In this document: one piece after another, positions 166 through 64,000 of the stretch
Layout: each line of letters begins with the position of its first letter
How positions within the stretch are numbered: the stretch's first letter is position 1
Source of the DNA: Escherichia coli
GTDB taxonomy: Bacteria > Pseudomonadota > Gammaproteobacteria > Enterobacterales > Enterobacteriaceae
Length of the DNA: 64,000 bases
Reading direction: 5' to 3' (one strand)
Assembly: GCF_003018255.1 (NCBI RefSeq)
Contig: NZ_CP027440.1
The notes under the pieces: model-generated
What the model was told of the DNA's origin: nothing
The model's database searches: none
What the model saw: only the letters and a program-made list of their open reading frames with translations
Made by a program: the position numbers and the translations under genes

Positions 166-196
166 AAGCCGGATGATATTAACGATCATCCGGCTT
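166..196. terminator. Perfect 10-bp inverted repeat (gccggatgat / atcatccggc) just downstream of the glcA stop; candidate terminator
   Basis: Inverted repeat read directly from sequence, flanked by T/A-rich runs on both strands. Confidence 0.45.
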
Positions 197-203
197 TATT
201 GAC

Positions 204-1886: not shown

Positions 1887-2200
1887 ATTGTTCAGTCTCT
1901 TATTATCTTTATATGCTTGATATACTTAAGGTTGTAATAAGCAAAAGAGGACTGAACTGTAAAATATAGGCGTTATACTTTACAGCAACAGTACGCCGCT
2001 AACGCAATTGCTACCTCTGGCATAACAAGTATATCGGGTAAGGGTTTCTGTTCCGCACACGCAGGCGCAGAGTATCGTTAAGATGTCCATATTGTTGTTT
2101 TAATCCCGCTAGTGATGCGCTACGGGTATTTAATATTGTTAACCCCTGATAATCGCTCCGGTTATTTCCGGGATAAATGTACTACCGCAGTTACTATCAT

Positions 2201-2234
2201 AGCCCCGACAATAAATCTTGCCGGGGCTTTTTTT
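2201..2234 (+). terminator. Hairpin (gccccg...cggggc) followed by a 7-T run on the plus strand, 8 nt beyond the glcB stop
   Basis: GC stem plus T-tract read from sequence; canonical intrinsic-terminator geometry only on the plus strand. Confidence 0.4.
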
Positions 2235-2241
2235 GACGCTA

Positions 2242-4413
2242 TTAATGATTTTCTTTTTCGCGTAAACGCCATGCGTGTAATAACGGTTCGGTATAGCCGT
2301 TTGGCTGTTTCACTCCGAGGAAGATCAAATCGCAGGCAGCTTTAAAAGCACACGAGTTAGCGAAATTCTCCACCATTGGACGATAAGCCGGATCGCCAGC
2401 GTTTTGCTGATCAACCACTTTCGCCATATTCTCCAGCGACGCCTGCACCTGATCTTTGGTCAGAATACCGTGACGTAACCAGTTGGCGATATGCTGGCTG
2501 GAAATACGCAGCGTTGCGCGGTCTTCCATCAACGCCACGTTGTGAATATCCGGCACTTTTGAACAACCAATCCCCTGCTCCACCCAACGCACCACGTACC
2601 CCAGAATCCCCTGCACGTTGTTATCCAGCTCTTGTTGGATCTCTTGCGCCGACCAATTAGCGTTTTCAGCAACCGGAATAGTCAGCAGATCGTCCAGCAG
2701 CGGTTCAAATTCAGCATTGAACTCGGTCTGGGCAATGTTGGCTTGCACGCTCTGTACGTTGGTTTGGTGGTAGTGCAGCGCATGGAGCGTAGCGGCAGTT
2801 GGCGACGGAACCCAGGCCGTGTTTGCCCCGGCACGCAATTGGTCGCCCTTCTGGCTGTACATGTCTGCCATCAGGTCCGGCATTGCCCACATGCCTTTAC
2901 CGATTTGCGCTTTTCCACGTAGCCCACAGAACAGACCGGAAAGCACGTTATTACGTTCGTAGGCTTTGATCCACGGCGTCGATTTCATCTGGTTTTTACG
3001 CAGCATCGGGCCCGCTTCCATCACCGAATGCATTTCATCGCCGGTACGGTCGAGGAAACCGGTATTGATGAACGCCACGCGGTTGCGCGCCTGAGCGATA
3101 CAGCTACGCAAGTTCAGCGAGGTCCGGCGTTCTTCATCCATAATGCCCATTTTCAGGGTATTCGGTGCCATACCGAGCATTGTCTCAACGCGGGAAAACA
3201 GTTTGTTGGCGAACGCCACTTCCTGCGGACCGTGCATTTTCGGTTTCACAATATAGACGCTGCCAGTGCGCGAGTTTTTCTGCACTTTTAAATCATAGAG
3301 GGCAATCGCGCCAGTCATGACGCCATCAAGAATGCCTTCCGGGATTTCATTGCCTTCGCTGTCCCAAATCACAGGAATGGTCATCAAATGACCCACGTTG
3401 CGGATAAACAGCAACGAGCGTCCGTGCAGAGAAATTTCAGATCCATCGGCGGCAGTGTACTGACGATCGTCATTCAGTTTACGCACGATTTGCCGACCGT
3501 TCTTCTCCATTTTCTCTTGCAGAGTCCCCTGCATCAGGCCCAGCAGGTTGCGGTACAGCAGGATTTTATCTTCCGCATCAACCGCCGCAACCGAATCTTC
3601 GCAGTCGAGAATGGTACTGATGGCCGCTTCGACGATAACATCGTTGATGTGCGCCGAATCGTCTTTGCCAATCCGCCCGTTGGCATCGATTTGTAGCTCA
3701 ATATGCAGGCCGTTATTTTTCAGCAAAATGCAGGTCAGCGCAGCAGTATCGCCACGGTAACCGACAAACTGTGCTGGAGTACGTAACGTGGTTTCTTTAC
3801 CATTTTTCAACTGGATGCGTAATTGTTTATCGACCACCTTAAACGCCACCACATCCTGATAGCTGCCGTTTTCCAGCGGTAGTGATTCATCGAGGAAACG
3901 CCGAACCCAGGCGATAACCTGCTCACCACGCTGCGGATCGTAGCCGCTGACCATCGCCCCTTCCTGCGGGATGATGTCACTGCCGTATAACGCATCGTAC
4001 AGTGAGCCCCAGCGAGCGTTCGCCGCGTTCAGCGCGTAGCGGGCGTTCATCGCCGGAACCACCAGCTGTGGCCCCGCCTGACTGGTGATTTCGCTGTCGA
4101 TGCCCGTGGTTTCCACCGTAACGTGGTCAGGCTGTGGCACCAGGTAGCCCAGTTCACGCAGGAAAGATTTATAGGCCGCTTTATCTTTTACCGGCCCCGG
4201 ATTGCTGCGATGCCACTCATCAAGCGCCGCCTGAATGCGATCACGCTCTGCCAGCAACTGACGATTCTCTGGCGCCAGATCGTGAACGATCTCATCAACA
4301 TTGCGCCAGAACGCGGCAGCGTCCAGTTCCACGCCCGGCAAAACTTCTTCATCCACAAAACGTTTAAAATTGGCGTCAATGCGTAAACGGCCCTGGGTTA
4401 TGGTTTGACTCAT
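2242..4413 (-). CDS. glcB: Malate synthase G, 723 aa
   Basis: ORF length and N-terminus ([13 protein letters not shown]...) match malate synthase G. Confidence 0.95.
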
Positions 4414-10793: not shown

Positions 10794-11164
10794 ATCTCTG
10801 TGGATAACAAATAATTAACGGTGAAAAACAGGTTGCAACAGCAACGAACGGCATCTTAATAATCAACCCAATGAATACAAACAAAGAATAAATAGTATTT
10901 ATTAATGATTACGATAAGGTCAGAGACTACACAGAAGCGCCACAATGCCTCTTGTCGATTTAAGGCGACCGGACAAGGCTCCTTCTTAATATATTCATAA
11001 ATTAAATATCATTCACAATAAAAACAAAAAAACTCAAACATATTATTTAAATCAATGTTCATTTTCACACCGATGAAAATACTATCTCATTTATCTTTTA
11101 TGCCTATATAATCCACCGCATTATTGTCATTTTATTTTGGATATCCAATTTTTTCGTGGTGTAT

Positions 11165-12889
11165 ATGTCTAATAAAATCTTTACGCATTCCCTACCTATG
11201 CGCTATGCCGATTTTCCAACGCTGGTTGATGCTTTGGACTACGCCGCTCTGAGTAGCGCCGGAATGAATTTTTATGACAGACGTTGCCAACTTGAAGATC
11301 AACTGGAATATCAGACGTTAAAAGCGCGTTCCGAAGCTGGTGCGAAAAGGTTGTTATCGCTGAACCTGAAAAAAGGCGATCGCGTGGCGCTGATTGCCGA
11401 AACGAGTAGCGGGTTTGTAGAGGCTTTTTTTGCCTGCCAGTATGCCGGCTTAGTCGCCGTCCCGTTGGCGATTCCAATGGGCGTCGGTCAGCGGGATTCC
11501 TGGAGCGCCAAACTGCAGGGTTTACTGGCAAGTTGCCAGCCCGCAGCCATTATCACTGGTGATGAGTGGTTGCCACTGGTCAATGCCGCGACGCATAACA
11601 ACAACCCCGAATTACATGTTTTAAGCCACGCCTGGTTTAAGGCATTACCGGAAGCCGATGTTGCGCTCCAGCGTCCAGTTCCAAACGATATCGCCTACCT
11701 CCAGTACACCTCCGGCAGCACCCGTTTTCCCCGTGGCGTCATTATCACCCATCACGAAGTGATGGCTAATCTACGTGCTATAAGCCACGATGGCATTAAA
11801 TTACGCCCTGGCGACCGCTGCGTCTCCTGGCTGCCTTTCTACCATGATATGGGACTGGTCGGCTTTCTCCTGACCCCCGTCGCCACGCAGCTTTCAGTAG
11901 ATTATTTGCGCACTCAGGATTTTGCCATGCGTCCTCTGCAATGGCTTAAATTGATCAGTAAAAATCGCGGCACCGTTTCCGTTGCACCGCCGTTTGGCTA
12001 TGAATTGTGCCAGCGCCGCGTGAATGAAAAAGATCTCGCTGAACTGGATCTTTCCTGCTGGCGCGTCGCTGGTATTGGAGCAGAACCGATCTCCGCAGAA
12101 CAACTCCATCAATTCGCTGAATGTTTTCGTCAGGTTAACTTTGACGATAAAACTTTCATGCCGTGCTACGGACTGGCAGAAAATGCGCTGGCTGTCAGCT
12201 TCTCTGATGAAGCCTGCGGGGTTGTGGTTAACGAAGTGGATCGCGACATCCTCGAATACCAGGGTAAAGCCGTCGCGCCGGGTGCTGAAACACGCGCCGT
12301 ATCGACTTTCGTCAACTGCGGTAAAGCGTTGCCGGAACATGGCATTGAAATCCGCAATGAAGCAGATATACCTGTCGCGGAACGTGTGGTAGGCCATATT
12401 TGCATCTCCGGCCCCAGCCTGATGAGCGGGTACTTTGGCGACCAGGTTTCGCAAGACGAGATTGCCGCGACGGGCTGGTTAGACACCGGCGACCTTGGTT
12501 ATCTGCTGGACGGTTATCTGTATGTCACCGGACGCATTAAAGATCTGATTATTATTCGTGGCCGTAATATCTGGCCGCAGGATATTGAATACATTGCGGA
12601 ACAGGAACCGGAAATTCATTCTGGCGATGCGATTGCTTTTGTTACCGCCCAGGAAAAAATCATTTTGCAGATCCAGTGTCGGATCAGCGACGAAGAACGT
12701 CGCGGGCAGCTTATCCACGCGCTGGCAGCTCGGATCCAAAGCGAATTTGGCGTTACCGCGGATATCGATCTGTTGCCGCCCCACAGTATTCCCCGAACAT
12801 CCTCCGGCAAGCCTGCCCGTGCGGAAGCGAAAAAACGTTATCAGAAGGCTTATGCTGCCAGTCTTCATGTGCAGGAATCCCTGGCATGA
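11165..12889 (+). CDS. Adenylate-forming fatty acyl-AMP ligase / acyl-ACP synthetase-like enzyme, about 574 aa
   Basis: AMP-binding signature (YTSGSTRFPRGV), size typical of acyl-AMP ligases; start uncertain (track GTG at 11156, first ATG at 11165); stop overlaps next gene start (ATGA). Confidence 0.8.
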   Translation: MSNKIFTHSLPMRYADFPTLVDALDYAALSSAGMNFYDRRCQLEDQLEYQTLKARSEAGAKRLLSLNLKKGDRVALIAETSSGFVEAFFACQYAGLVAVPLAIPMGVGQRDSWSAKLQGLLASCQPAAIITGDEWLPLVNAATHNNNPELHVLSHAWFKALPEADVALQRPVPNDIAYLQYTSGSTRFPRGVIITHHEVMANLRAISHDGIKLRPGDRCVSWLPFYHDMGLVGFLLTPVATQLSVDYLRTQDFAMRPLQWLKLISKNRGTVSVAPPFGYELCQRRVNEKDLAELDLSCWRVAGIGAEPISAEQLHQFAECFRQVNFDDKTFMPCYGLAENALAVSFSDEACGVVVNEVDRDILEYQGKAVAPGAETRAVSTFVNCGKALPEHGIEIRNEADIPVAERVVGHICISGPSLMSGYFGDQVSQDEIAATGWLDTGDLGYLLDGYLYVTGRIKDLIIIRGRNIWPQDIEYIAEQEPEIHSGDAIAFVTAQEKIILQIQCRISDEERRGQLIHALAARIQSEFGVTADIDLLPPHSIPRTSSGKPARAEAKKRYQKAYAASLHVQESLA

Positions 12890-13800
12890 ATCAAACTGTC
12901 GCGGTGACGGGCGCTACCGGGTTTATCGGTAAATATATTATTGATAACCTGCTCGCCCGCGGCTTTCACGTTCGCGCATTAACGCGTACTGCCCGCGCTC
13001 ACGTCAATGATAATCTCATCTGGGTGCGCGGTTCGCTGGAAGATACACATTCGCTTAGCGAACTGGTTGCCGGAGCCAGCGCGGTGGTCCATTGCGCCGG
13101 ACAAGTGCGCGGACACAAAGAAGAGATTTTTACCCGCTGTAACGTTGACGGCAGCCTGCGCCTGATGCAAGCGGCAAAAGAGAGCGGCTTTTGCCAACGT
13201 TTTCTGTTTATCTCTTCGCTGGCGGCGCGCCATCCCGAACTCTCCTGGTACGCAAATTCCAAACACGTCGCCGAACAACGACTGATCGCAATGGCTGACG
13301 AAATTACGCTGGGCATTTTTCGCCCGACAGCCGTGTATGGTCCCGGCGATAAAGAGTTAAAACCGCTGTTTGACTGGATGCTGCGCGGCCTGCTGCCACG
13401 ACTTGGTGCGCCAGATACACAACTCTCTTTCCTGCACGTCACCGATTTTGCGCAAGCAGTGGGTCAGTGGTTAAACGCCGAAACTGTACAGACGCAAACC
13501 TATGAATTATGCGATGGCGTCGCTGGCGGCTATGACTGGCAACGCGTACGACAGCTTGCCGCCGAAGCCCGTTGTGGTTCTGTGCGGATGGTTGGCATTC
13601 CTCTGCCGCTACTCACCTGCCTTGCGGATATCAGTACTGCGTTGAGTCGCCTGGCAGGTAAAGAACCTATGCTGACCCGCTCGAAAATTCGTGAATTAAC
13701 CCACGCCGACTGGTCGGCAAATAATAACCGTATTTCTGAAGATATTAATTGGTTTCCCGGGATTAGCCTGGAACACGCATTACGCAACGGGCTATTTTGA
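12886..13800 (+). CDS. NAD(P)-dependent epimerase/dehydratase-family reductase, 304 aa
   Basis: N-terminal Rossmann motif VTGATGFIGKYI; start at ATG 12886 overlapping upstream stop (ATGA); track ORF from 12676 is an out-of-operon extension. Confidence 0.8.
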   Translation: MNQTVAVTGATGFIGKYIIDNLLARGFHVRALTRTARAHVNDNLIWVRGSLEDTHSLSELVAGASAVVHCAGQVRGHKEEIFTRCNVDGSLRLMQAAKESGFCQRFLFISSLAARHPELSWYANSKHVAEQRLIAMADEITLGIFRPTAVYGPGDKELKPLFDWMLRGLLPRLGAPDTQLSFLHVTDFAQAVGQWLNAETVQTQTYELCDGVAGGYDWQRVRQLAAEARCGSVRMVGIPLPLLTCLADISTALSRLAGKEPMLTRSKIRELTHADWSANNNRISEDINWFPGISLEHALRNGLF

Positions 13801-13831
13801 TTGTCTTGTTTAAAGGTGTGTTAACGTTTCT

Positions 13832-14080
13832 ATGGTAAATCGTGAAATAGTAATGGATTACATCCTTTCCTGTTTACAGGATTTGGTCGAAAACGGTGTG
13901 GAAATTAAGCCCGACAGCGATCTCGTCAACGATCTTGGCCTGGAGTCGATCAAAGTGATGGATCTCTTAATGATGCTGGAAGACAGATTCGATATTTCCA
14001 TTCCTATTAATATTCTGCTGGATGTCAAAACCCCTGCGCAATTAATGGAAACTCTACTTCCATGGCTGGAGAATAAATAA
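13832..14080 (+). CDS. Dedicated acyl carrier protein, 82 aa
   Basis: Small acidic protein with phosphopantetheine-attachment-like motif DLGLESIKVMDL; stop overlaps next start (TAATG). Confidence 0.75.
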   Translation: MVNREIVMDYILSCLQDLVENGVEIKPDSDLVNDLGLESIKVMDLLMMLEDRFDISIPINILLDVKTPAQLMETLLPWLENK

Positions 14081-15252
14081 TGGGGCTATACGATAAATAT
14101 GCGCGCCTTGCTGGCGAGCGCCTGCAATTTAGTGACAACGGGTTAACACCATTTGGCACCTGTATTGATGAAGTGTATTCCGCCACCGAAGGCCGGATCG
14201 GCAATAAAAAAGTGATTCTGGCCGGGACCAATAATTATCTCGGTTTAACCTTTAATCATGATGCTATCCGCGAAGGTCAGGCAGCGTTAGCGGCCCAAGG
14301 CACTGGCACCACCGGTTCTCGTATGGCAAACGGCAGTTATGCGCCGCATCTGGCGTTAGAGAAAGAGATTGCCGAGTTTTTCAATCGCCCTACCGCTATC
14401 GTTTTTTCAACCGGTTATACCGCTAATTTAGGTGTCATCAGCGCACTTGCCGACCATAACGCCGTGGTGTTACTGGATGCCGACAGCCACGCCAGTATTT
14501 ATGACGCCTGTTCTCTCGGCGGCGCAGAGATTATTCGTTTCCGCCATAATGACGTCAACGATCTGGAACGGCGCATGGTCCGCCTCGGTGAACGGGCGAA
14601 AGAGGCGATTATTATCGTTGAAGGCATCTACAGTATGCTCGGTGACGTTGCGCCGCTGGCAGAAATTGTTGATATCAAACGTCGTCTCGGTGGTTATTTG
14701 ATTGTCGATGAAGCACATTCGTTTGGCGTGTTAGGCGCAACAGGCCGCGGACTGGTTGAAGCCGTTGGCGTTGAAGACGACGTGGATATTATCGTCGGCA
14801 CCTTCAGTAAAAGTTTGGCTTCCATTGGTGGTTTTGCCGTGGGTTCAGAAGCGATGGAAGTGCTGCGCTACGGCAGCCGCCCGTATATTTTTACCGCCTC
14901 TCCTTCTCCGTCCTGCATTGCGACCGTGCGCTCGTCGTTAAGAACCATTTCCACACAACCAGAGCTGCGGCAAAAACTGATGGATAACGCCAACAATCTG
15001 TATGACGGTCTGCAAAAACTGGGTTATGAGTTAAGTTCACATATTAGCCCGGTAGTGCCAGTAATAATCGGTTCGAAAGAGGAAGGTTTACGCATCTGGC
15101 GCGAGCTTATTTCGCTGGGCGTTTATGTGAATCTTATCCTGCCACCTGCCGCGCCTGCAGGCATCACGCTGCTGCGCTGTAGCGTAAACGCTGCCCACAG
15201 TCGTGAGCAAATCGATGCCATCATTCAGGCATTTGCTACTCTGAAGCAGTAA
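14080..15252 (+). CDS. PLP-dependent alpha-oxoamine synthase, serine-palmitoyltransferase-like, 390 aa
   Basis: Class-II aminotransferase fold with PLP-lysine motif GTFSKSLASIGG; distinct from BioF and Kbl; translationally coupled to the ACP gene. Confidence 0.8.
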   Translation: MGLYDKYARLAGERLQFSDNGLTPFGTCIDEVYSATEGRIGNKKVILAGTNNYLGLTFNHDAIREGQAALAAQGTGTTGSRMANGSYAPHLALEKEIAEFFNRPTAIVFSTGYTANLGVISALADHNAVVLLDADSHASIYDACSLGGAEIIRFRHNDVNDLERRMVRLGERAKEAIIIVEGIYSMLGDVAPLAEIVDIKRRLGGYLIVDEAHSFGVLGATGRGLVEAVGVEDDVDIIVGTFSKSLASIGGFAVGSEAMEVLRYGSRPYIFTASPSPSCIATVRSSLRTISTQPELRQKLMDNANNLYDGLQKLGYELSSHISPVVPVIIGSKEEGLRIWRELISLGVYVNLILPPAAPAGITLLRCSVNAAHSREQIDAIIQAFATLKQ

Positions 15253-15257
15253 TGTGA

Positions 15258-15292
15258 GCCCGCTGTGGTGTTGCGCCACGGCGGGTTTAATG
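15258..15292. terminator. Convergent hairpin (cccgctgtgg...ccacggcggg) with T-rich tail between the synthase gene and the LptG-like gene
   Basis: About 10-bp stem read from sequence, followed by tttaatg. Confidence 0.4.
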
Positions 15293-16366
15293 TTGTCTGT
15301 CATACCAATACACCAGGCTCAACGCCACCAGCACAAACGCTACCGGTAAACCGAGCGCGGTAACAGGTGCGCTCAACGCAAATAACAATCCCAGATTGAC
15401 CATGATTTGATAGCTGATCCAGGTGAGTAAGCCAACGATGACGCCTACAGCGAGACGGCTACCCATCCCAGGCGAACGCGGGGCGCTAAAGGTAAACGGC
15501 ACAGCCAGCAAAATCATCGCCAGGGTCAAGATGGGTTGTCCCAGTTTTTCCCACAGTGCAAGGCGGTATTCGCTGCTGGGTTGCCCGGTTTCCTGCAAAT
15601 AATGGATGTAATGATTAAGTTGACGGACAGAAAAAGTATTTCCCGGCATCGATAACTCTTCAAGATTCATACTGGTGAAGGCCGATTGCCAGGGAAGATT
15701 ATCAGATGTTTCCTGCGTTTCTTTGCCATTCAGCCATTTTTTATGATTCACACCATGCAGGATCCACGTTTTGTCGTCTTCAATGGTAGCACTGCGCGCA
15801 TAAATGTAGGATTCGAGCGAGAGATCATCGCGGTAATGAAATATCTCCACGTCCACCGGCTGGCCCTGCTCGTTCAGCGATTTCACCGTCACAAATTCAT
15901 TACCACGCCTGGCCCACAGCATATTGCCGGTAATGTCATCGTCCTCCCCCAACGCAGTGGCAGTCGATTTGATTTGCAGCGCCTGTTGCTGCAATGGCGA
16001 CGCCACCCACTCATCTATCGCGCCTAATGAAACAGTCCACAATATCCCGGCAACCAGCGCCACCAGTGCAATACGGAAGATAGAAAACCCCGTGCTGCGA
16101 ATGGCGGTAAGCTCACTGTTTTTCGATAACTGCCCCAGGCCGACAATCCCTCCCAATAAGGCGATAAACGGCGAAAGTTCGACCAGTGTGCGCGGTAAGG
16201 TCATCAGCACCACCAGCACCGCCTGAGTCCAGCGATAACCACCCGGGCTGACATCATCCAGTTCGTTAATCAGGTTGAAGGTGGTAAAAAGCGGCAGCAA
16301 TAGCCCTGCGGCGGCGGCAAAACCGAGAAAGAGATGACGGATTAAATAGCGACTGAAAACATTCAT
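15287..16366 (-). CDS. LptG/LptF-family (YjgP/YjgQ) permease paralog, about 359 aa
   Basis: N-terminus MNVFSRYLIRHLF typical of LptF/G permeases; trimmed to ATG at 16366 overlapping upstream stop (ATGA). Confidence 0.75.
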   Translation of the reverse strand: MNVFSRYLIRHLFLGFAAAAGLLLPLFTTFNLINELDDVSPGGYRWTQAVLVVLMTLPRTLVELSPFIALLGGIVGLGQLSKNSELTAIRSTGFSIFRIALVALVAGILWTVSLGAIDEWVASPLQQQALQIKSTATALGEDDDITGNMLWARRGNEFVTVKSLNEQGQPVDVEIFHYRDDLSLESYIYARSATIEDDKTWILHGVNHKKWLNGKETQETSDNLPWQSAFTSMNLEELSMPGNTFSVRQLNHYIHYLQETGQPSSEYRLALWEKLGQPILTLAMILLAVPFTFSAPRSPGMGSRLAVGVIVGLLTWISYQIMVNLGLLFALSAPVTALGLPVAFVLVALSLVYWYDRQH

Positions 16367-17433
16367 CGGGAAAATTTCTGCAGCAAAGAGAAGTCGCGTG
16401 CGACCAACATCAGCAGGCCCATTAGCATGAGTCCGGGTACTAACCACAAACCAGGAATGAGGGGAATCGCGCCGTTAGCCACCAGCGTACGGCAGACGTC
16501 GCCGCCATAAAAAATGGCAACAAACAGCAACGTCAGTGGCAATAACGTTGAAAATCGCCCTTGCCGCGGTTTTACCCGACTTAATGAAATGGCCAGCAGC
16601 GCCATCAACAATGCTGTCAGGCCACGGCTTTGTCGCCATTGCAGTTCGGCATGATCGGCAGGAAAGGCGGAGCGCGCCAGCTCCGTGACCGATTTTGCTT
16701 TGCGTTTGACGTTAGGGCTTTGATCCAGCGGATTCAGATGTAATTGCAGATTACGGTAGATCTGTTCGTTGTCGTCACGCCCCTGATGATCGAGAAGATA
16801 GGCGGTCCCGTTATGCAACATAACGGTCGGTTTCTCAGGTGATGGGTCAACCACATCAACCGAACGGGCGCGGAAAATGCGGGTTCGATTAGCAGTAGAA
16901 GTATAAATCAGCGCATCAGTCAGGCGATTATTATCCTGATCAACCGTCTGCGAAAGGATCATTCGTCCGTTATCGTTAGTGTTAAATTTCTTTGCCCGCA
17001 ACTGGCGAACATCCAGCTCCGACTGTGACTGTTGCTCCAGTTGATAAATCTGCGCATAAGCCCACGGACGACCATACATCGACAGAAGGGTGACAAAAAT
17101 ACTTAGCGGTATCGCCAGATAAAGAACGGCTTTGTACAAGCGTCCCGGACTGCCCCCCGCCGCAGAGATAGCGGTAATTTCCGAGTCGGTATACATCTGC
17201 CCTAGCGTCACGCCAACTGACACATACAGTCCAACAGGTAACAACATCTCCAGTGCAATCAGCACTTTGTAGAAAACGATATCCAGCACAACATCAAGAG
17301 CTAATGTCCCATTTGCCGCTTCGGTCAGATAACGCTGTGCGGAGTAGCTGGCGAAAATAAAGATCAGAAAACCGACGATAATCAGCACCAGACGGCGCGT
17401 ACCACGCATGATGTAGTGTTCAACCAGCTTCAT
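16363..17433 (-). CDS. LptF/LptG-family (YjgP/YjgQ) permease paralog, 356 aa
   Basis: Polytopic membrane protein with LptF/G-like N-terminus; operon partner of 15287-16366. Confidence 0.75.
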   Translation of the reverse strand: MKLVEHYIMRGTRRLVLIIVGFLIFIFASYSAQRYLTEAANGTLALDVVLDIVFYKVLIALEMLLPVGLYVSVGVTLGQMYTDSEITAISAAGGSPGRLYKAVLYLAIPLSIFVTLLSMYGRPWAYAQIYQLEQQSQSELDVRQLRAKKFNTNDNGRMILSQTVDQDNNRLTDALIYTSTANRTRIFRARSVDVVDPSPEKPTVMLHNGTAYLLDHQGRDDNEQIYRNLQLHLNPLDQSPNVKRKAKSVTELARSAFPADHAELQWRQSRGLTALLMALLAISLSRVKPRQGRFSTLLPLTLLFVAIFYGGDVCRTLVANGAIPLIPGLWLVPGLMLMGLLMLVARDFSLLQKFSR

Positions 17434-17462
17434 CTCACTAACGCCCTCAATCCTTTGAATTT

Positions 17463-18026
17463 TTATTCATTGATCAGCTTCTGCGCCAGCGCAATGACAT
17501 GATCTACCTCTTCCGGCGTCAGGCTGCCGTCCTTTGCCCACTGAATTTGCCCGGTTTTATTCAGCACCAGAATGGTTGAACTCTGCTCCTGCAAGTGCCA
17601 GGCAACGCGTCCCTGTCCATTGCCGTCAATAACGAATTGCGCCCATGGATAGCGGCGTTTATTTTTTTCGATTTTGCCAACGACAAAATAGCCGGTACCA
17701 AAGATGGCATCATCAGTGTTCACAATGGTGGTGGGCTGAAAACGATCCTGCGGAAAGTTTGCCGCTTCAACTGCTTTAATTAACAGTGAGTTCTTTTTCT
17801 TCGCCGACTTACGCCCGGCGATATACTGAATAATGCGAACTTTTCCCGCCAATTGGGTGCTGTTCCACTTTTGGTAGTGAATTTCGTCGTCGCTATTCCG
17901 AAGCAGCTCGCCGCCTTCCTGGATATAAACGGGGGTAACCGTTTTGCCAGTGACGAAATTGTGTGCCTGCACACCCGGGGCTAAGAGCATGATAATCAGC
18001 GCAATAATCAAACGAGATGACATCAT
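17463..18026 (-). CDS. Secreted/periplasmic protein with cleavable signal peptide, possibly YtfJ-like, 187 aa
   Basis: N-terminal signal peptide (...LLAPGVQA/HN); family assignment tentative. Confidence 0.55.
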   Translation of the reverse strand: MMSSRLIIALIIMLLAPGVQAHNFVTGKTVTPVYIQEGGELLRNSDDEIHYQKWNSTQLAGKVRIIQYIAGRKSAKKKNSLLIKAVEAANFPQDRFQPTTIVNTDDAIFGTGYFVVGKIEKNKRRYPWAQFVIDGNGQGRVAWHLQEQSSTILVLNKTGQIQWAKDGSLTPEEVDHVIALAQKLINE

Positions 18027-18034
18027 TGCTCCGG

Positions 18035-18859
18035 TTATAGCGGAAAACGCGAAATCAGCAGTTCTAAGCGCTGGCGAATATCGCTATCCAGCGCCATCGG
18101 TGCATCATACGACTGGCGGTTTTCCATATCATCCGCCACCATGTCGTCGTGTTTATCCCCCATCAGGCCATTAATGGCGGCGAGGAAGCGGGAAATCTGT
18201 AACGCTTCTTTATTTTCAGGATCAAGCGATCTTAGGGTGTCGTAATAAGAAACCTGCTGGCTGATGATTTTTCGCACATCATGAAATTCCCTGCCGGTTA
18301 GTCGCGGTTTGGCAATTATCTCTTTCAGGGTATGCATTTGCTTTTGCCGATAGGCAATAAAACCGCTTACGCTTTCTAACTGGCTATGGCGTAATGAATA
18401 GTTCACCAACGACCAGACCGGAGAGCTTAAATAAACCCGTAACAGGTTGCCGTAATACGACACAATATTTTTCTTACCGTTACGAAAGCCGTCCTGAAAA
18501 CGCCCCAAAAAAACGGTCGTTTTGCCGAATAAAAATCCGGCCTGATGCTTCTTTAAATACAGCCGTTGCGCAAAACGCAGGTGCTTGTAGCGCGCTCGCA
18601 TGTATTTAAATTGTTTGCGCTCATCAGCAGTCAGCTCATCGCCTTTGGCCTGTTTGCATATTAAACGCAGTAACTCCTGGCGATTGACGCCATTGAGCCA
18701 GAATTGCAGGCATAACGCGTAATTATCATGGATGATTTCGGTGGTACAACTTAGTGCGATAGTCGGCGGCAAACTGACCTGTGCATCAACGACATCATCT
18801 TCTTCAATCGCAACAAATAGACGCTCGCTCGCCTCTAGCGGGAAATATTTTCTCATCAT
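18035..18859 (-). CDS. Hypothetical protein, 274 aa
   Basis: Full-length ORF in operon; start overlaps the stop of yghQ by 1 nt; no domain recognised. Confidence 0.6.
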   Translation of the reverse strand: MMRKYFPLEASERLFVAIEEDDVVDAQVSLPPTIALSCTTEIIHDNYALCLQFWLNGVNRQELLRLICKQAKGDELTADERKQFKYMRARYKHLRFAQRLYLKKHQAGFLFGKTTVFLGRFQDGFRNGKKNIVSYYGNLLRVYLSSPVWSLVNYSLRHSQLESVSGFIAYRQKQMHTLKEIIAKPRLTGREFHDVRKIISQQVSYYDTLRSLDPENKEALQISRFLAAINGLMGDKHDDMVADDMENRQSYDAPMALDSDIRQRLELLISRFPL

Positions 18860-20208
18860 CAGGATTTCTCTCCGGCTGCGTTATAAAGCAAGGAATGGCG
18901 CTGAAAAAATGCCTTTAAGGTCGGAATTAGCGAAAGCACCACATCCAGACATTGACCACCGAAATAAGCAAACGCTGCTCCCAGCACGCCAAACAGATGA
19001 CAGAACATGAACAGCAATACGATGTAGCCGATTGAGGCGATGGTTTGCGCCACGAGAAAAGCGCGCTGTTTTCCCGCCATCAATAGCAATGACTCCTGAG
19101 GGAAGCCCAGCATCGAGATCACAATTGCGCCCAGCATCACCTGAATCAGGTCATACGCTTCGAGATACTTAACGCCAAACACCAGCGAAATGAGCGGCTT
19201 GCCGACAATCAACACCGCGAGCGCCACCAGAATACCGATTCCGCCCGCCAGTAAACCTGACTTCACGCCTAACAACCACGGTCTGGTGGTACGCGGATCT
19301 AAACGCATCACCTCTGGGTAAAAACTTTTGCCCAGTAAACCCGCTGGCGTTCCGGCGGCGTCGAAGAATGTCATGGCGATTTTAAATAACCCGGCGGCAG
19401 CGGGTCCTAACACGATCCCCACCAACACTGTGCTGCACGAATTACGCGCCGACCAGATGGAATGGGCAATGTTGGTTGACCAGACAAAACTCCACGCGCC
19501 TTTGATGTGTCGGGCAGACTCAAACAGATTCAATTTGAACGCGTTATGGATATTTCTGCGGCGTAATTCACGTGCGGCAAACCACCAGTACATGGTGCCG
19601 CCAACAAGATTCGAGGCGTACCAGGCAATAACAAAACCCGCAAAACCAAAGTCAAAATACCAGGCAACGACGCTCCCCGCTGCGCGCAGAAAAGGTTTCG
19701 TCGCTTGCTGTACAGCAATTAGATCGAAGCGATCTACCGCACGCAGAATGCCGGTCGGCGTGGAGGAAGCCATTGAAGGAATGAGCGTGCAATACAGCGC
19801 TGCCAGCCAAAAGCTTTGGTCATCCAGACCTAATGAATGGGAAAGAAAAGGGAGTAAGGCAATGCCGCCGACAATCGCCACCGCGCCGCTGACGATATCC
19901 AGCGAGAAGGAAAATGAGACGACATTGCGGAATTGCTGCGGATTATTGTTGGTTAATGCTGGTGTTCCGTACTGAACCACCAGCTGCCATGTCTGAAACT
20001 TAATAAAATCGCTGATCGACTTGGCGTACGATTGTACAATCACCAGTACGCCAAACATGGCGGGCGTCATCCCTTTACCGGCACACGAGAGCGCCAACAG
20101 ACCCAGCAAAGCGCTCACGACATTACTGGAGCCTAACCAGGCGCTATTGCGAATAATGGTGCGAAACGCGCCATCTGCAAACCAATGTTTGATGTTAAAA
20201 CCCGCCAA
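18859..20208 (-). CDS. yghQ: MOP-superfamily flippase/exporter, full-length 449 aa
   Basis: Polytopic membrane ORF at the K-12 yghQ position; K-12 YghQ recalled as 355 aa, suggesting a 3'-truncated K-12 copy. Confidence 0.75.
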   Translation of the reverse strand: MAGFNIKHWFADGAFRTIIRNSAWLGSSNVVSALLGLLALSCAGKGMTPAMFGVLVIVQSYAKSISDFIKFQTWQLVVQYGTPALTNNNPQQFRNVVSFSFSLDIVSGAVAIVGGIALLPFLSHSLGLDDQSFWLAALYCTLIPSMASSTPTGILRAVDRFDLIAVQQATKPFLRAAGSVVAWYFDFGFAGFVIAWYASNLVGGTMYWWFAARELRRRNIHNAFKLNLFESARHIKGAWSFVWSTNIAHSIWSARNSCSTVLVGIVLGPAAAGLFKIAMTFFDAAGTPAGLLGKSFYPEVMRLDPRTTRPWLLGVKSGLLAGGIGILVALAVLIVGKPLISLVFGVKYLEAYDLIQVMLGAIVISMLGFPQESLLLMAGKQRAFLVAQTIASIGYIVLLFMFCHLFGVLGAAFAYFGGQCLDVVLSLIPTLKAFFQRHSLLYNAAGEKS

Positions 20209-53690: not shown

Positions 53691-55298
53691 TCAATGTGCC
53701 TTGATATACAACTCTTTGCTGTAGACATAATCCTGGGGATTATGCAGCGGAAAACCGCCAACGTAGGGTTTAAGCAGTTTGATTAACGGCTGATAGTAGA
53801 TGGGAATCAGCGGTGCCTGCTGGTTGATGATCACTTCTGCCTGCTGATACAACGCATTACGCTTTGTCGCATCAGTGATCTGCGTGGCCTGGTTTAGTAA
53901 GGCGTCATACTGCGCATTTTTCCAGTGACCGACGTTTTCTTCACTATCGCTTTTGAGCGTGTTCAGGAAGCTGGAGGCATCATTGTACGTCGCATCCCAC
54001 GACTGCCGAGACAGCATAAAATCACCGGCTCGTCGGGCATCAAGATAGGTTTTCCACTCCATTGTGCGCAGCGTCACCTGTGCACCCAGCCATTTTTTCC
54101 ATTCGGAAGACAACGCTATCGCGGTCTTTTCATGCAGATCGTACTTGTTGTAGAACAGCTCAAAGCGTAGCGGATGAGAGGCGTCGTATCCCGCCTGTTT
54201 CAGCAAGGCTTTTGCCATCGCGACACGCTCACTCATTGGCTTTTGCAGTTCATCGAACGTCGTCGCGCTAAAGCCTTTTACCTCTGGCGGCGTCAGCGTG
54301 GTTGCGGGCGTTCTCAACCCCAGTACCTTTTGCGCAATAAGCTGTCGATCAACCGTAAGATATAGCGCCCGACGCACCCGCACATCGTTAAATGGCGGTT
54401 TCTCAAGGTTAAAGTTGTAATATTCGCTGTTCAGACGCGGGATAATTCGTAGCTCGCCAGGCAGTGATTTTTCAATGGCGGGAATTTGCTGCGCCGGAAC
54501 CCAGGTGAGATCGACCTCTCCCGCGCGATAGCGGTTATAGCCGGTGACCGAATTATCCAGCGCCAGATACTCAACCTGTTGCAATACCGTATGTTGCGCA
54601 TCGCGGTACTTTGGATTTTTGCGTGCGGTAATCTTTTCGTTAACTACCCATTTATCAAGCACAAAGGCACCGTTGTAAACCATGTTCTCTGGCTTACTCC
54701 AGCTATCGCCATGTTTAGCGATGACATGATGAGGAACCGGGAACAACGTCGGCCAGGCGAGCATCGTCGTAAACCAAGGAACTGGCTGCTCAAGCGTAAC
54801 TTCAAGAGTACGATCATCCGTCGCTTTGATCCCCAGCGATGTAACATCTGCTTTACCCGCAACAATAGCCGCGGCATTGTTAATGTGCGCCTGTGCCAGA
54901 TAGCCAGCAAAAGGGCTTGCCGTTTTCGGGTCAACCGCACGTTGCCAGCCGAGGACAAAATCCTCTGCCGTCAGAGGCTGACCGTCTGACCACTGCAAAC
55001 CGCTACGCAGATGGAAAATATAGCGCTTGCCGCCGTCAAGTATCTCCCAGCGTTCAGCCTGAGCGGGCTGCACCTGGCCTTCACCGTCCATCCATACCAG
55101 ACCTTCAAACAGATCCAGCACAATCTGCGCGGCAGTATTCTCCTCTACCTTTTGCGGGTCGAGCGTGCCTGGGTCGCTATGATTGTTGTAACGAAAGACT
55201 TGTTGCGGGGCGAGCGGTGTGTTGGCGGGAACGTCAGCAGCGTAGAGAGGAGCCGCACTTACCAGGCTGACCAGCCATAATAAATTTCGCGTATACAT
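53691..55298 (-). CDS. ygiS: Periplasmic solute-binding protein (family 5, oligopeptide-type), 535 aa
   Basis: Trimmed to MYTRNLLWLVSLVSAAPLYA...; AGGA ribosome-binding site upstream. Confidence 0.9.
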   Translation of the reverse strand: MYTRNLLWLVSLVSAAPLYAADVPANTPLAPQQVFRYNNHSDPGTLDPQKVEENTAAQIVLDLFEGLVWMDGEGQVQPAQAERWEILDGGKRYIFHLRSGLQWSDGQPLTAEDFVLGWQRAVDPKTASPFAGYLAQAHINNAAAIVAGKADVTSLGIKATDDRTLEVTLEQPVPWFTTMLAWPTLFPVPHHVIAKHGDSWSKPENMVYNGAFVLDKWVVNEKITARKNPKYRDAQHTVLQQVEYLALDNSVTGYNRYRAGEVDLTWVPAQQIPAIEKSLPGELRIIPRLNSEYYNFNLEKPPFNDVRVRRALYLTVDRQLIAQKVLGLRTPATTLTPPEVKGFSATTFDELQKPMSERVAMAKALLKQAGYDASHPLRFELFYNKYDLHEKTAIALSSEWKKWLGAQVTLRTMEWKTYLDARRAGDFMLSRQSWDATYNDASSFLNTLKSDSEENVGHWKNAQYDALLNQATQITDATKRNALYQQAEVIINQQAPLIPIYYQPLIKLLKPYVGGFPLHNPQDYVYSKELYIKAH

Positions 55299-55406
55299 GG
55301 TATTCCTTACCGGAGAAATTATAAGCCCGACAACAATACGCCTGTGGCATTGTTTGCTCAAACTTATCGCGAGTGATTTGGCTCACACTCCGGTAAAGAT
55401 TCCCCA

Positions 55407-55889
55407 TCACGCCAACGGCACATAAATATCCGTTTCCAGTCGCCGCTCTGTCATCCCTTCGGCAAGATTGGTGTAGTGAAACAGGATCGGGGCTTTGCGC
55501 ATTTTTTCGCCGCTTGCAGGTAGCCAGTGGCGAATGATGCCCCATATCGTGTGTGAAATATCGTCCAGCTCGCCAACATGGCGGGCAACAGCATAACGCC
55601 CACCGGTAAGTTCGCCATTACTCACGCCATAACGATTATCGGGGATCGGTTCGCTAACGCTGCCGCAGATATCAAAGCGAAACGCTTCTGGTGCGGTGGT
55701 GGCTGGGTCGTCCCAGGCGACGCCAAAAGTCTGGCTTTGGTTAACAGGAGAAAGCCCCGTCTCTTTACGCCACATGATAAATTTCGCCACGCTGTAGTTG
55801 AGCAACTCAGGGCTACAGCGGTGCGGCAACATCGCCACAGGGATTGATGGGAAATCGATAATATTTACATCCAGTGTCAGGTTTGTCAT
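55407..55889 (-). CDS. ygiV: GyrI-like domain regulator, 160 aa
   Basis: Length and position; lies 108 bp from the ygiS start with no gene between. Confidence 0.88.
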   Translation of the reverse strand: MTNLTLDVNIIDFPSIPVAMLPHRCSPELLNYSVAKFIMWRKETGLSPVNQSQTFGVAWDDPATTAPEAFRFDICGSVSEPIPDNRYGVSNGELTGGRYAVARHVGELDDISHTIWGIIRHWLPASGEKMRKAPILFHYTNLAEGMTERRLETDIYVPLA

Positions 55890-55941
55890 TTTGCCTCCCT
55901 GCGAAATTATTCCCGGGAACGCGTCCCGGGAGCGGTAACAA

Positions 55942-56334
55942 TTACGGATTTACTTTGCGGATCTGTTTGACGTCAATTTCAACAGAGTTCCAGTCTTTAT
56001 CGACTTCACCCTGAATCTCAACTGTATCTTTCGGCGTCACCGTCACGCCGTTCCAGCGTTTGTGGTCGATATCAACATTGATAGTACCGCTGGCATCTTT
56101 GAACACGTAGAGATCGTCAGAGATGCGTTCAACGATATTGCCGCGCAGGGTTACCCAGGTGTCGTCACGCAGGGATTTTGCGCTTTCTACGGTCGTTACG
56201 CTGCCGTTCGGCCCCTGGAATCCTCCGGCCTGACTTTGCGTTGCCGATGGGCCAGAAAAACCGCCCTGCTCTGCTGCCATCACCGGTGCGCTGCACAGGG
56301 CCATTACTGCGATTACTGCTGCGAATTTTTTCAT
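55942..56334 (-). CDS. ygiW: OB-fold periplasmic stress protein (BOF family), 130 aa
   Basis: Trimmed to MKKFAAVIAVMALCSAPVMA... Confidence 0.9.
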   Translation of the reverse strand: MKKFAAVIAVMALCSAPVMAAEQGGFSGPSATQSQAGGFQGPNGSVTTVESAKSLRDDTWVTLRGNIVERISDDLYVFKDASGTINVDIDHKRWNGVTVTPKDTVEIQGEVDKDWNSVEIDVKQIRKVNP

Positions 56335-58491: not shown

Positions 58492-58499
58492 CTTCTCTG

Positions 58500-58536
58500 T
58501 CTATGAGAGCCGTTAAAACGACTCTCATAGACTTTA
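58500..58536. terminator. Convergent terminator hairpin between qseC and ygiZ
   Basis: Perfect 10-bp stem tctatgagag / ctctcataga followed by tttact. Confidence 0.6.
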
Positions 58537-58869
58537 CTAATAGCAAAATATAAACCGTCCCCAAAAAAGCCACCAACCACAACCCAGACAAATAACGAGC
58601 GAGAATACATATAGCCAAAACTCGAACATTTCCCGCATAAAGAGTTTTCTTAAGATAAGAATAATAAGTGGTGTCAGAAGAAAAAATGCTGCAATCATTG
58701 CTTGCAATATACGATCTTCGCCTGAAACAGAAGGTATACTGCAAATATTGTCTCCCGACTCAAGCATCCAGTCATACTTATTGAAAGCAAAAAAAGAATC
58801 TATTAACCAATAAGTAAGCATTATATATAATAGTGCTTCAAATATTGATAGTAGTTGTTTTTTTAACAT
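58537..58869 (-). CDS. ygiZ: Small inner-membrane protein (three predicted TM helices), 110 aa; candidate immunity protein
   Basis: Length and position match K-12 ygiZ; start lies 6 bp after the stop of the upstream SLT-like gene; AT-rich. Confidence 0.85.
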   Translation of the reverse strand: MLKKQLLSIFEALLYIMLTYWLIDSFFAFNKYDWMLESGDNICSIPSVSGEDRILQAMIAAFFLLTPLIILILRKLFMREMFEFWLYVFSLVICLGCGWWLFWGRFIFCY

Positions 58870-58875
58870 ATCTGA

Positions 58876-59586
58876 TTACTCATTAATCAATTTTTTGATA
58901 TGTTCTCTAATCTCTAACAACCTCATACCATAAGAGATGAATTTATAATCATCTGTATCACGCGCAGGCAAATTATTAATTAAACAAATAAAAAAGCCCA
59001 AATCTCGTTCAACACCACGATTATATCTAATACCAGCCATAATATACTGCTCATTCGTCATATACAGTGTTGCCGAAGAGGGATAATCAAAAAGGACAAG
59101 ATCTCTTAAATAAGTAGCAGCAATTTGAAAGGTAAAATCATCCTCCATTAGGCATGTCGCTAACTCTAACTGATTTCTGGTAGTTAATTCTGAAGGGTCT
59201 AGACCTAGAGTAATCGCTGCGGTTCGTATTTGTATACCCATTGAGCCAAATGATGTTTTATTTTCAGGCATATCTAACAATCCCATCATTCTTTTTGTTT
59301 CATATATCTGAAACTTATAATTTTCAGGCATACCTCCTGACTCAATCCAGGCCACGCCGCCCAGTAACTCTGGACGAATTCCAGCGGCGTATGCATGTTT
59401 AATTATTTTGTCTCTATTATATTGTACATATGCATCTTTATAAGCATTTAAATAATATACTCCTGAACGGCGACGCGAATCATTTTTTCCTAACTTCCAG
59501 AGTAAAACGTCCATTTCATCCCATTTACGGAACTTCGCTTGTGGAATTGTACAATATCTATTTTTTATAGTGAGATCGCTTTTCAT
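58876..59586 (-). CDS. Lysozyme-like / SLT-domain protein, about 236 aa; putative Hcp-associated type VI effector
   Basis: Motifs in order: catalytic-type WIESGG, then GSMGIQI, then YNRG; ATG at 59586 lies 2 nt after the hcp stop with an AAGGA ribosome-binding site inside the hcp 3' end; track start (TTG, 59613) rejected. Confidence 0.55.
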   Translation of the reverse strand: MKSDLTIKNRYCTIPQAKFRKWDEMDVLLWKLGKNDSRRRSGVYYLNAYKDAYVQYNRDKIIKHAYAAGIRPELLGGVAWIESGGMPENYKFQIYETKRMMGLLDMPENKTSFGSMGIQIRTAAITLGLDPSELTTRNQLELATCLMEDDFTFQIAATYLRDLVLFDYPSSATLYMTNEQYIMAGIRYNRGVERDLGFFICLINNLPARDTDDYKFISYGMRLLEIREHIKKLINE

Positions 59587-59588
59587 AT

Positions 59589-60068
59589 TTAAAAAATCCT
59601 TTCTTCCCAACAACTATATGATTCCGTACTCGCGATATGGTGCTTCCATGTTATATTTTTATAATTAAGAACAATGACCTCTTCCGGCTGATTACCCGCA
59701 TGTGTAATTGAGTGTGGATAACATGTCAGAATATTCGATAAATGTGCTCCTTGCAATTCAATTGTGTAAAACCTTTCAATACAACCGCCAGAATTAACTC
59801 TATAAAAATTAAATACAGCTGATAACTCTTCATTTTCAGAAAGAGCGGCATTTAATAAAGGGGAGGATTTATCTATTGGCTTGTAAAATTTTATGGGGTG
59901 ATGCACTACATTATACTCTCGACTTAAAGAATGGTCGAACTGTAAAACAAAAATTTCATCCACATGATTTATTTGATATTTATTACCAATAGATGCATAC
60001 GAACCACAACCCTCAGAGATCAAACCTTGTATTTTCCCTTTAATTGATAAGTATATGATATTTGACAT
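59589..60068 (-). CDS. hcp: Type VI secretion tube protein Hcp (Hcp1 family), 159 aa, orphan copy
   Basis: Conserved Hcp blocks (H-P-F-K-ID-SSP-L, NITW, C-terminal WEER); no other type VI genes in the window. Confidence 0.85.
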   Translation of the reverse strand: MSNIIYLSIKGKIQGLISEGCGSYASIGNKYQINHVDEIFVLQFDHSLSREYNVVHHPIKFYKPIDKSSPLLNAALSENEELSAVFNFYRVNSGGCIERFYTIELQGAHLSNILTCYPHSITHAGNQPEEVIVLNYKNITWKHHIASTESYSCWEERIF

Positions 60069-60216
60069 ATATATTCTCCATAATCATTTTTTCCGAAAAA
60101 CTCCTGTATCATTTGCATAATACATCTCTCCTGTGGGAGCTTATGGGAAGTTGATTTAAGTATTGTCATTTTCAGAAAATATTTATCCCGCATCGGTGAA
60201 TCAGAGAAAGATCAGA

Positions 60217-61288: not shown

Positions 61289-62176
61289 TTAGCCATTCTT
61301 TCTTCCCGTTTTCAGTCCTCGATGGAAATCGTTAATTCGCTTAATGGTTTTAACCGCACGCTGCGGCACTGCGGAAGCTACCGACCAGACAATCATTTCC
61401 AGACACAACAATACCGTACCATGTAGCGGCGTTTTCCCTTTTTCATCCCCGCGCGGAACATGAATCACGATACTGGCGTCTTTGCTAAAACGTGAATCCA
61501 GCGCGTTTGTCAGCAAAATAACAGGGATCCCTAGCCGCCTCGCCTCACGAAGCGTTGTCAGCCCTTCCCGGTGCGCTGATTTTTGCGCCATCATGATCAG
61601 AACATCGCCACGTTGAAGCGCGATCAGTTGCTCGGCAAGGCCAATACCCGTACGGTTTAGTGCCGTGGCAGGCAAACCTATGCGGTTGAATAGTCGTGCG
61701 GTATAGTCCGCCAGAATACCCGAAGCGCCAATGCCAAAAATTGCGACTTGCCGTGCCTGCACCAACAACGCTACAGCTTGCGCAAGCGCGTGGCGGTTTT
61801 CAGGCTCTGACAGGACATTACAGGTATACAAATGCCCTTCAAGAACAAAGTCGATTGCGGTGTTAACATCGCTCGTCAAGTTACTCACCGTCGTAGACAT
61901 CTTTTCGCTGGAACTAAGGGCTGGACCAAGCCACTGTTCCAGAGTGCGTTTCAGATCACGCAGCCCGGCAAACCCCAGGGCCTGTATAGCCCTGATAACT
62001 GTGGCATCGGAAGTGTTCAACGTGGCCGCAATTTCCATCGCCGTTTGCTCGAGTACCACTTCACGATGCTCATTAATGTAGCTGGCGACAACTCTTAACC
62101 CAGGCGTTAACTGACTCGCGCGAGTGCGAAAACGCTCACCAAAAATATCAACCCGCACTTTATCTTTCTGGATCAT
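61289..62176 (-). CDS. RpiR/MurR-family regulator (HTH plus SIS domain), 295 aa
   Basis: N-terminal HTH region and C-terminal SIS-like region; start overlaps stop of the upstream binding-protein gene (ATGA). Confidence 0.75.
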   Translation of the reverse strand: MIQKDKVRVDIFGERFRTRASQLTPGLRVVASYINEHREVVLEQTAMEIAATLNTSDATVIRAIQALGFAGLRDLKRTLEQWLGPALSSSEKMSTTVSNLTSDVNTAIDFVLEGHLYTCNVLSEPENRHALAQAVALLVQARQVAIFGIGASGILADYTARLFNRIGLPATALNRTGIGLAEQLIALQRGDVLIMMAQKSAHREGLTTLREARRLGIPVILLTNALDSRFSKDASIVIHVPRGDEKGKTPLHGTVLLCLEMIVWSVASAVPQRAVKTIKRINDFHRGLKTGRKNG

Positions 62177-63120
62177 TTAGCCTCCGGTAGAGGTCGCCCT
62201 GCAATTTGTGATTGTATCTGCGCAGCCATCAGCCCCAGAGATGCAAAGGAGTTAGAAATTGCCTCTTCACGAGAAATCAGCACATAACGCCCGGAACGAC
62301 AGGCAGTCAGAAACTGACACCATCCCGGCATGACTTTTTCCATTGCTGCCAGCTCATCCTGAGGTTTACCACCGGTGTCACCGCGCCAGGTTGCAAAAAC
62401 AAAATCGGCATCCAGTTCAGGTAAACGCTCCGCGCTCACATCCATTCGCCCACCTTCAGGAATGCTCTCAATCAGCGGCGGAAAACGAAAACCCGCATCG
62501 CGTAATACCCGCCCCAGCGAATGATAGCTATGCATCACATTAATTTTTCCCTGGTTTGCCTGAATCACCGATACCGTTATTTTTTGGCTGTCCAGCGTCG
62601 CCTTCAGCGCATTGATTTGTGCCTGATAGCGGCGTTCAAGTATCGCCAGCTGCGACTGCGTTCCTGTAAGTCCTGCCAGCTTGCGATAGATTTCTGGCGC
62701 ACCCCCTTTGAGATGATCAATGCTCACCGTGGGCGCAATTTTTTCAAGTTGTTCAATGGGCGTATTACGGGTCGGTTCTGTGATGATCAGGTCAGGCTTT
62801 GCCGCCACAATCGCTTCAATATCAATATCAGCGGTACCAATAAAGGCGATCGATGAATTATCAAAGTCGACACCTGTCAATAACGCGCCAGATCGAATGA
62901 AATGGCTACCGTCAGGCCGAGTTCGCCCGTGGCTGGCGACAGGAGGTACACCGAGCTCAATCAGAGGAATAGTGATATCAAGATCGTGTAAAGAGACAAT
63001 TCTCTTTGGATGAGCAGGAACAGTGACTTTGCGCCCTAAATCATCAGTAAATACCTGAACAGGTTCTGTTGCACGGGAAAAAAATGACAACAGTATCAGC
63101 AGAGAAAAAAATAAACGCAT
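62173..63120 (-). CDS. ABC-transporter periplasmic substrate-binding protein (siderophore/cobalamin/heme class), about 315 aa
   Basis: Signal peptide (MRLFFSLLILLSFFSRA) then FecB/BtuF-like sequence; track ORF extends 21 codons further upstream. Confidence 0.7.
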   Translation of the reverse strand: MRLFFSLLILLSFFSRATEPVQVFTDDLGRKVTVPAHPKRIVSLHDLDITIPLIELGVPPVASHGRTRPDGSHFIRSGALLTGVDFDNSSIAFIGTADIDIEAIVAAKPDLIITEPTRNTPIEQLEKIAPTVSIDHLKGGAPEIYRKLAGLTGTQSQLAILERRYQAQINALKATLDSQKITVSVIQANQGKINVMHSYHSLGRVLRDAGFRFPPLIESIPEGGRMDVSAERLPELDADFVFATWRGDTGGKPQDELAAMEKVMPGWCQFLTACRSGRYVLISREEAISNSFASLGLMAAQIQSQIAGRPLPEAK

Positions 63121-63130
63121 ATAACTCCCG

Positions 63131-64000
63131 TTAAAAACTGTTCCTGCGCTGCCAGAGCAGTAGCAAAAAAAATGGTCCACCAATCAGTGAGATAATGATT
63201 CCGGCAGGCAGTTGCAAAGGCAAAAAAGCCAAACGACCAATGCTATCCGCCAGAATAACTAACAACGCCCCCGATACCGCGCTCCCCAGCAGTAATGTCG
63301 TCTGCCCGCCACGTAGAATAAAACGTGATATATGGGGTGCTATCAATCCGACAAAACCGATGTTACCAACACACGAAACGCAGACGGCTGTCAGGATTAT
63401 TGGTGCGGCGACACGTAACAACGCCAGACGAGAACTATTCACCCCTAACCCGGTTGCAACCTGATGACCAAGCAGAGCGATATCCGCCGTCCTGGCGGTG
63501 AACAGCAATAAAAGAGCGGCTGGCAACATCCAACAGGCTGAAATACCGACTAACATCCAGTTAGCTGCATGCAGGCTTCCCGATAACCACATCAATGCAG
63601 TTTGTACATCTCGAACATCTGCAGTGGTCATAAATACACCGATACCGGCGGCGAAAAACCAGGAAACACCAATACCAATCAGAACAAATCGCGGGCGGGA
63701 AATATCGCGCGCACAAAAAATCACGATTAAAGCCACCAACAAGCCACCAGCAAGACCAGCCACTGGACGCCAGAACATTCCCAGCATTGGAAACTGGAAA
63801 ATCAGCCACAGCACCGCCACGCTACATCCTTCTTTGACGCCGATTAAACCAGGATCGGCAAGGCCGTTACGCGCAATGGATTGCATCGCGGCCCCCGCCA
63901 TACCTAACATGGCTCCGCATAGCAATGCCATGATGACTCTCGGCAAGCGAATATCCTGCACAATATAACGTGCGTCTGTGCTTACGTTTTCTGGAGCAAA
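63131..64000 (-). CDS. FecCD-family ABC permease, N-terminus beyond the window edge
   Basis: Polytopic membrane ORF; coding frame continues to position 64000. Confidence 0.7.
   Translation of the reverse strand, partial: FAPENVSTDARYIVQDIRLPRVIMALLCGAMLGMAGAAMQSIARNGLADPGLIGVKEGCSVAVLWLIFQFPMLGMFWRPVAGLAGGLLVALIVIFCARDISRPRFVLIGIGVSWFFAAGIGVFMTTADVRDVQTALMWLSGSLHAANWMLVGISACWMLPAALLLLFTARTADIALLGHQVATGLGVNSSRLALLRVAAPIILTAVCVSCVGNIGFVGLIAPHISRFILRGGQTTLLLGSAVSGALLVILADSIGRLAFLPLQLPAGIIISLIGGPFFLLLLWQRRNSF

Follow-up and report, generated by a model that had tools for sequence, protein, structure and literature searches.

An unoccupied mqsRA insertion site between ygiS and ygiV in an Escherichia coli chromosome

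The closest described system is mqsRA of E. coli K-12 (ygiU-ygiT, b3022-b3021), a type II toxin-antitoxin (TA) locus that in the annotated MG1655 record lies in the order parC-ygiS-mqsA-mqsR-ygiV-ygiW-qseB, with parC to ygiW on one strand and qseB the exception. The chromosomal type II TA systems of E. coli have an uneven, phylogroup-linked distribution and a horizontal origin according to Fiedoruk et al. 2015 and Ramisetty & Santhosh 2016, as these are cited in PMC7167474 and PMC5120126. MG1655, W, EDL933 and UTI89 share no conserved TA system (PMC7167474, Fig. 1B with references 32 and 33 therein), the B2 strain NRG857c is reported to have no MqsRA homologue (PMC7232551), and mqsA, mqsR and ygiS are accessory genes whose frequencies differ between mastitis and commensal strains (PMC11390585). 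The physiological weight of MqsRA in persistence and biofilm formation is contested (PMC6918082, PMC7167474). The functional meaning of an absence of mqsRA is uncertain, because biofilm, stress-response and deoxycholate phenotypes earlier ascribed to MqsRA were not reproduced (PMC6918082).

Here we describe the corresponding locus in a 64-kb stretch of an E. coli chromosome (the window, 64,000 nucleotides). The window shares the K-12 neighbourhood, parC-ygiS-[site]-ygiV-ygiW-qseBC, and the identical ygiV stop codon, and it lacks the whole 927-bp module, that is mqsR, mqsA, the palindromic operators and both flanking hairpins, in place of which it carries TTCCC. Set beside the phylogroup-dependent type II TA systems of E. 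coli, the locus presents the same polymorphism, a small cassette of foreign G+C content between core genes with the empty site intact. It differs from them in no substantive way, the window being one more non-carrier. The patchy distribution of mqsRA is already known and the site in the window is an ordinary one; what we add are base-level boundaries, the polarity given by outgroups, and counts over 5,426 genomes.

The ygiS-ygiV junction and its K-12 counterpart

The features of the junction are as follows.

53691-55298, minus strand: ygiS, intact, 535 aa, an ABC-transporter periplasmic substrate-binding protein (ORF list and RefSeq annotation of equivalent loci)
55299-55406, no strand: ygiS-ygiV spacer, exactly 108 non-coding bp, the unoccupied mqsRA insertion site
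55304-55308, minus strand: ygiS Shine-Dalgarno sequence AAGGA, 5 nt upstream of the ATG (read from the sequence)
55400-55404, no strand: TTCCC, the five bases swapped for the 927-bp cassette in K-12-type genomes (pairwise and BLAST boundaries)
55407-55889, minus strand: ygiV, intact, 160 aa, a GyrI-like/AraC-family regulator (ORF list and RefSeq annotation of equivalent loci)

On the minus strand, the ygiS start codon is the ATG at 55298-55296 (sequence and six-frame ORF list) and the ygiV stop codon is the TGA at 55409-55407 (sequence and ORF list). The N-terminus of YgiS translated from the ATG at 55298, MYTRNLLWLVSLVSAAPLYA, is typical of a signal peptide. Gene names and boundaries in the window (parC, ygiS, ygiV, ygiW, qseB and qseC) are those of the RefSeq annotation of strain 200164, which is 100% identical to the window over 54700-56000, and of strain JNE112863, which is 99.8% identical over 39001-64000. 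A preliminary description of this DNA had reported a 108-bp non-coding gap that contains the ygiS ribosome-binding site, and its coordinates agree exactly with the sequence, the ORF list and the RefSeq annotation.

The K-12-type partner for the alignment was the strain E2 locus (L002). The window is collinear with L002 up to position 55399 (L002 2700) and again from 55405 (L002 3628). At the K-12 position of the module strain E2 has 927 bp (L002 2701-3627) where the window has the five bases TTCCC, giving a net difference of 922 bp, which is also the length difference returned by the population search (2223 versus 1301). Positions 55299-55399 of the window correspond, with 2 SNPs, to the ygiS-proximal 101 bp of the 132-bp spacer that separates mqsA from ygiS in K-12, and the last two bases of the window spacer (55405-55406), which follow the ygiV stop codon, are common to the window and K-12. 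The preliminary description had also placed mqsA-mqsR between ygiS and ygiV in K-12 and had stated that the pair is missing here; the MG1655 record bears out the gene order and, together with the alignment to the K-12-type locus, confirms the absence.

Read on the minus strand, the cassette consists of a terminator-like hairpin immediately after ygiV, the mqsR promoter, mqsR, mqsA, and a second hairpin with a T-run. The mqsR promoter holds two ACCT-N3-AGGT palindromes, which are MqsA-binding sequences, and the hairpin at the 3' end is G+C-rich and followed by the T-run, forming a rho-independent terminator. The L002 spacers of 204 bp (ygiV-mqsR) and 132 bp (mqsA-ygiS) match the values tabulated in PMC5120126. 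The G+C content of the cassette is 40.9%, compared with 52-53% for ygiS, ygiV and ygiW. Its ends show no terminal inverted repeats of at least 7 nt, no direct repeats of at least 6 nt and no target-site duplication, and no recombinase was found.

Outgroup state and distribution among complete genomes

One YgiV scan of species-representative genomes yielded five non-coli Escherichia loci, from E. albertii, E. whittamii, Escherichia sp. MOD1-EC7003, Escherichia sp. E1V33 and 'E. coli' SCPM-O-B-8794, the last of which is a separate species representative and is counted among the non-coli lineages. A match to MqsR or MqsA was found in none of these loci (0/5). In E. albertii, E. whittamii and SCPM-O-B-8794, ygiV is followed by about 110 bp and an intact ygiS, while in MOD1-EC7003 and E1V33 a decayed ygiS comes straight after ygiV. 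The aligned spacers of the three outgroups with intact ygiS keep ...GGTAAAGA(T)TCCC..TCA at the insertion point, the window reading GGTAAAGA-TTCCC-CATCA against (T)TCCC(C/G)(T/A)TCA in the outgroups, and the TCCC motif found at the empty site of E. albertii, E. whittamii and SCPM-O-B-8794 is present at that of the O111:H8 strain as well. This conservation of the outgroup spacers shows that the genus originally had an empty site here and that the K-12 arrangement arose by insertion. The window has the arrangement of the ancestral site, with ygiS and ygiV both intact, codirectional and about 108-111 bp apart.

The population sample comprised 5,426 complete E. coli genomes. A near-identity search found the cassette in 2,299 of them (42%), so that absence of mqsRA is the majority state, at approximately 58% of complete E. 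coli genomes. The ygiS-mqsA junction is present in 2,293 genomes, and essentially all copies of the cassette are at this one locus. A further 1,357 genomes (25%) have no mqsRA and have also lost ygiS, which is replaced by a 242-bp filler; by difference, about 1,720-1,770 genomes (32%) have the ygiS-ygiV arrangement of the window, which is also that of Nissle 1917, ST131, O157:H7 and O55:H7. The same junction thus recurs in roughly 1,700 independent complete assemblies and in other Escherichia species, which leaves almost no credit for the idea that the short spacer is an artefact of mis-assembly or of a collapsed region.

The genomes without ygiS carry a third allele of the parC-ygiV region. 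In B1-type strains, as represented by O111:H8 02-3334, the TTCCC site and the ygiV-ygiW-qseBC side are the same as in the window, whereas ygiS, intact in the window, is gone except for 22 bases at its start and 36 at its end. B1-type genomes carry the TTCCC empty site on a spacer haplotype identical to that which flanks the cassette, so occupied and unoccupied alleles coexist on one background. The filler is a single-copy sequence (L003 4759-5000 in O111:H8 02-3334) in place of the equivalent of window positions 53728-55276. It has no Rfam match at E<=1, and its most distant relative falls within a gene whose annotation is group II intron maturase domain protein; this suggests that the filler is an intron remnant. 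ygiS is independently fragmented in MOD1-EC7003 (L006 5553-5922) and in E1V33 (L008 3713-4140). These two outgroup fragmentations and the B1-type loss indicate that ygiS has been repeatedly dispensable.

We consider it very probable that the spacer in the window is the ancestral, never-occupied junction, that the 927-bp module was inserted in one E. coli sublineage, and that the lineage of the window never received it. A self-contained module of foreign composition would have entered 2 bp downstream of the ygiV stop codon, replacing 5 bp, and its receivers would be one sublineage that includes K-12 and about 42% of complete genomes. The window would come from a lineage related to phylogroup B2 in which ygiV and ygiS stayed direct neighbours on the same strand and the proximal upstream region of ygiS was left unchanged. 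We infer a single insertion event from the uniform identity of the cassette and of its flanks in the sampled rows.

An ancestor of the window strain could instead have had mqsRA between ygiS and ygiV and lost it by a precise deletion. TA modules are known to decay and disappear, and the repeated loss of ygiS demonstrates that the region does undergo deletions. Such a deletion, however, must recreate TTCCC exactly as it stands in E. albertii, E. whittamii and the other outgroups, and neither the alignment nor tblastn revealed any remnant of the cassette at the empty site of the window. Moreover, cassette copies are at least 99% identical in all 2,299 carriers, with flanks that differ by 1-5% between lineages, and this identity combined with the foreign G+C content points to a recent gain. 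Secondary loss is accordingly a very improbable account of the window, and we retain the reading that its junction was never occupied.

Coding capacity for MqsR and MqsA in the source genome

No MqsR-family toxin ORF was found in the 64-kb window by tblastn with the K-12-type MqsR (98 aa), and no MqsA antitoxin ORF with the K-12-type MqsA (131 aa), in six frames at E<=1e-3 in both cases. MqsA is an antitoxin of approximately 131 aa with a zinc-binding N-terminal domain and an HTH, and the 108-bp spacer is too short to hold its gene between ygiS and ygiV.

The window covers 64 kb of the source genome, and mqsRA or a close homologue might lie elsewhere in the chromosome or on a plasmid. MqsR-family toxins with 62-68% identity do occur on plasmids of Rahnella, Rouxiella, Pectobacterium, Burkholderia and others (PLSDB), so the family is mobile. 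Against a relocated copy, all 2,299 genomes with mqsRA carry it on the chromosome, all except a handful at the ygiS-mqsA junction counted above, and none of the 5,426 complete genomes has the cassette on a plasmid. PLSDB returned just two matches labelled as E. coli plasmids, which are 99-100% identical K-12-type copies in records of 4.9 Mb and 354 kb and are probably chromosomal DNA, and MqsR had no match in the phage collection. A low-stringency blastn search with the mqsRA coding DNA (about 65-70% identity) returned the same 2,299 genomes and none additional, and because this count equals that of the near-identity search, no diverged paralogue is hidden in the non-carriers.

The relatives of the window give the same picture. 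The nearest are two Japanese human isolates at 99.8% identity, followed by B2 strains at 99.1%, and no record reaches 100%. A chimeric query composed of 2 kb of the window glcA region and the cassette gave a single match in each of the 30 records most similar to the glcA segment, both nearest relatives included, and none of these records matched the cassette. The population counts and the cassette-free nearest relatives make absence from the whole chromosome, as stated in the preliminary description, very likely, and we consider a relocated copy to be hardly credible. Beyond the 64-kb window this is extrapolated from other genomes, and on that footing the source chromosome almost certainly encodes no MqsR or MqsA anywhere, although outside the window that genome may still have a homologue recognisable as protein whose DNA identity falls below about 65%.

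Because mqsRA is a recent accessory cassette that 58% of complete E. coli genomes and the other Escherichia lineages examined lack, global regulatory roles described for K-12 MqsA and MqsR cannot be species-wide. Strains like the source of the window are natural mqsRA null backgrounds, and the exact sequence of the empty site is useful for the design of clean deletions or insertions that spare the upstream region of ygiS.

Spacer content and strain-variable segments nearby

Three further features were located in the spacer.

55318-55323, minus strand: TATAAT, a perfect -10-like hexamer with no good -35, candidate proximal ygiS promoter (read from the sequence)
55299-55315, minus strand: proximal arm of an inverted repeat, containing the ygiS Shine-Dalgarno sequence (repeat search, 17 nt, 82% complementary)
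55388-55404, minus strand: distal arm of the same repeat; in K-12 the cassette takes the place of its outer 5 nt

A putative promoter upstream of ygiS is recorded in RegulonDB, as cited in PMC5120126. Our consensus scan of 55150-56000 for promoters and terminators returned nothing in the spacer above shuffle expectation, and TATAAT was not among the two-hexamer matches.

As RNA, the inverted repeat would pair the Shine-Dalgarno region with the bases right after the ygiV stop codon. The predicted fold of the spacer is more stable than 200/200 shuffles (z = -3.6). In a consensus fold of five Escherichia sequences, which are very similar to one another, the helix is kept by one-sided changes only, with 0 compensatory pairs, and the spacer has no Rfam match at E<=1. 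The K-12 mqsRA cassette adjoins and truncates the distal arm. We treat the inverted repeat as a lead rather than a finding. A conserved 12-17-bp helix might mask the ygiS Shine-Dalgarno sequence on read-through from ygiV, transcripts from the proximal TATAAT might escape this masking, and the cassette with its terminator might have rewired ygiS in K-12-type genomes; we regard this reading of the fold as unlikely. If true, it could bear on the disputed link between MqsR, YgiS and deoxycholate.

Several segments of the window vary among its relatives. Strain 200164 (Mali), identical to the window over the 1,301 bp around the junction, is 98.4% identical over the whole window and differs by a 1.7-kb indel; the local identity of 100% against this overall value indicates a local recombination mosaic around ygiS-ygiV. 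Between qseC and mdaB, a 1.7-kb segment (58492-60213) contains ygiZ, a hypothetical gene and an Hcp-family type VI secretion gene. This segment is wholly missing in strain 200164, and the O111:H8 strain has ygiZ there without the other two genes. Past ygiN, positions 61289-64000 encode a MurR/RpiR regulator and an iron-siderophore ABC transporter (a substrate-binding protein and FecCD permeases). The O111:H8 strain has parE immediately after ygiN, which identifies 61289-64000 as a strain-variable island. Finally, the region from yghR to yghO (approximately 11000-20200, by the annotation of strain 200164) includes spt (serine palmitoyltransferase), an acyl carrier protein and a fatty acyl-AMP ligase, together with genes annotated as an epimerase, LptF/LptG paralogues and an LPS-biosynthesis protein.
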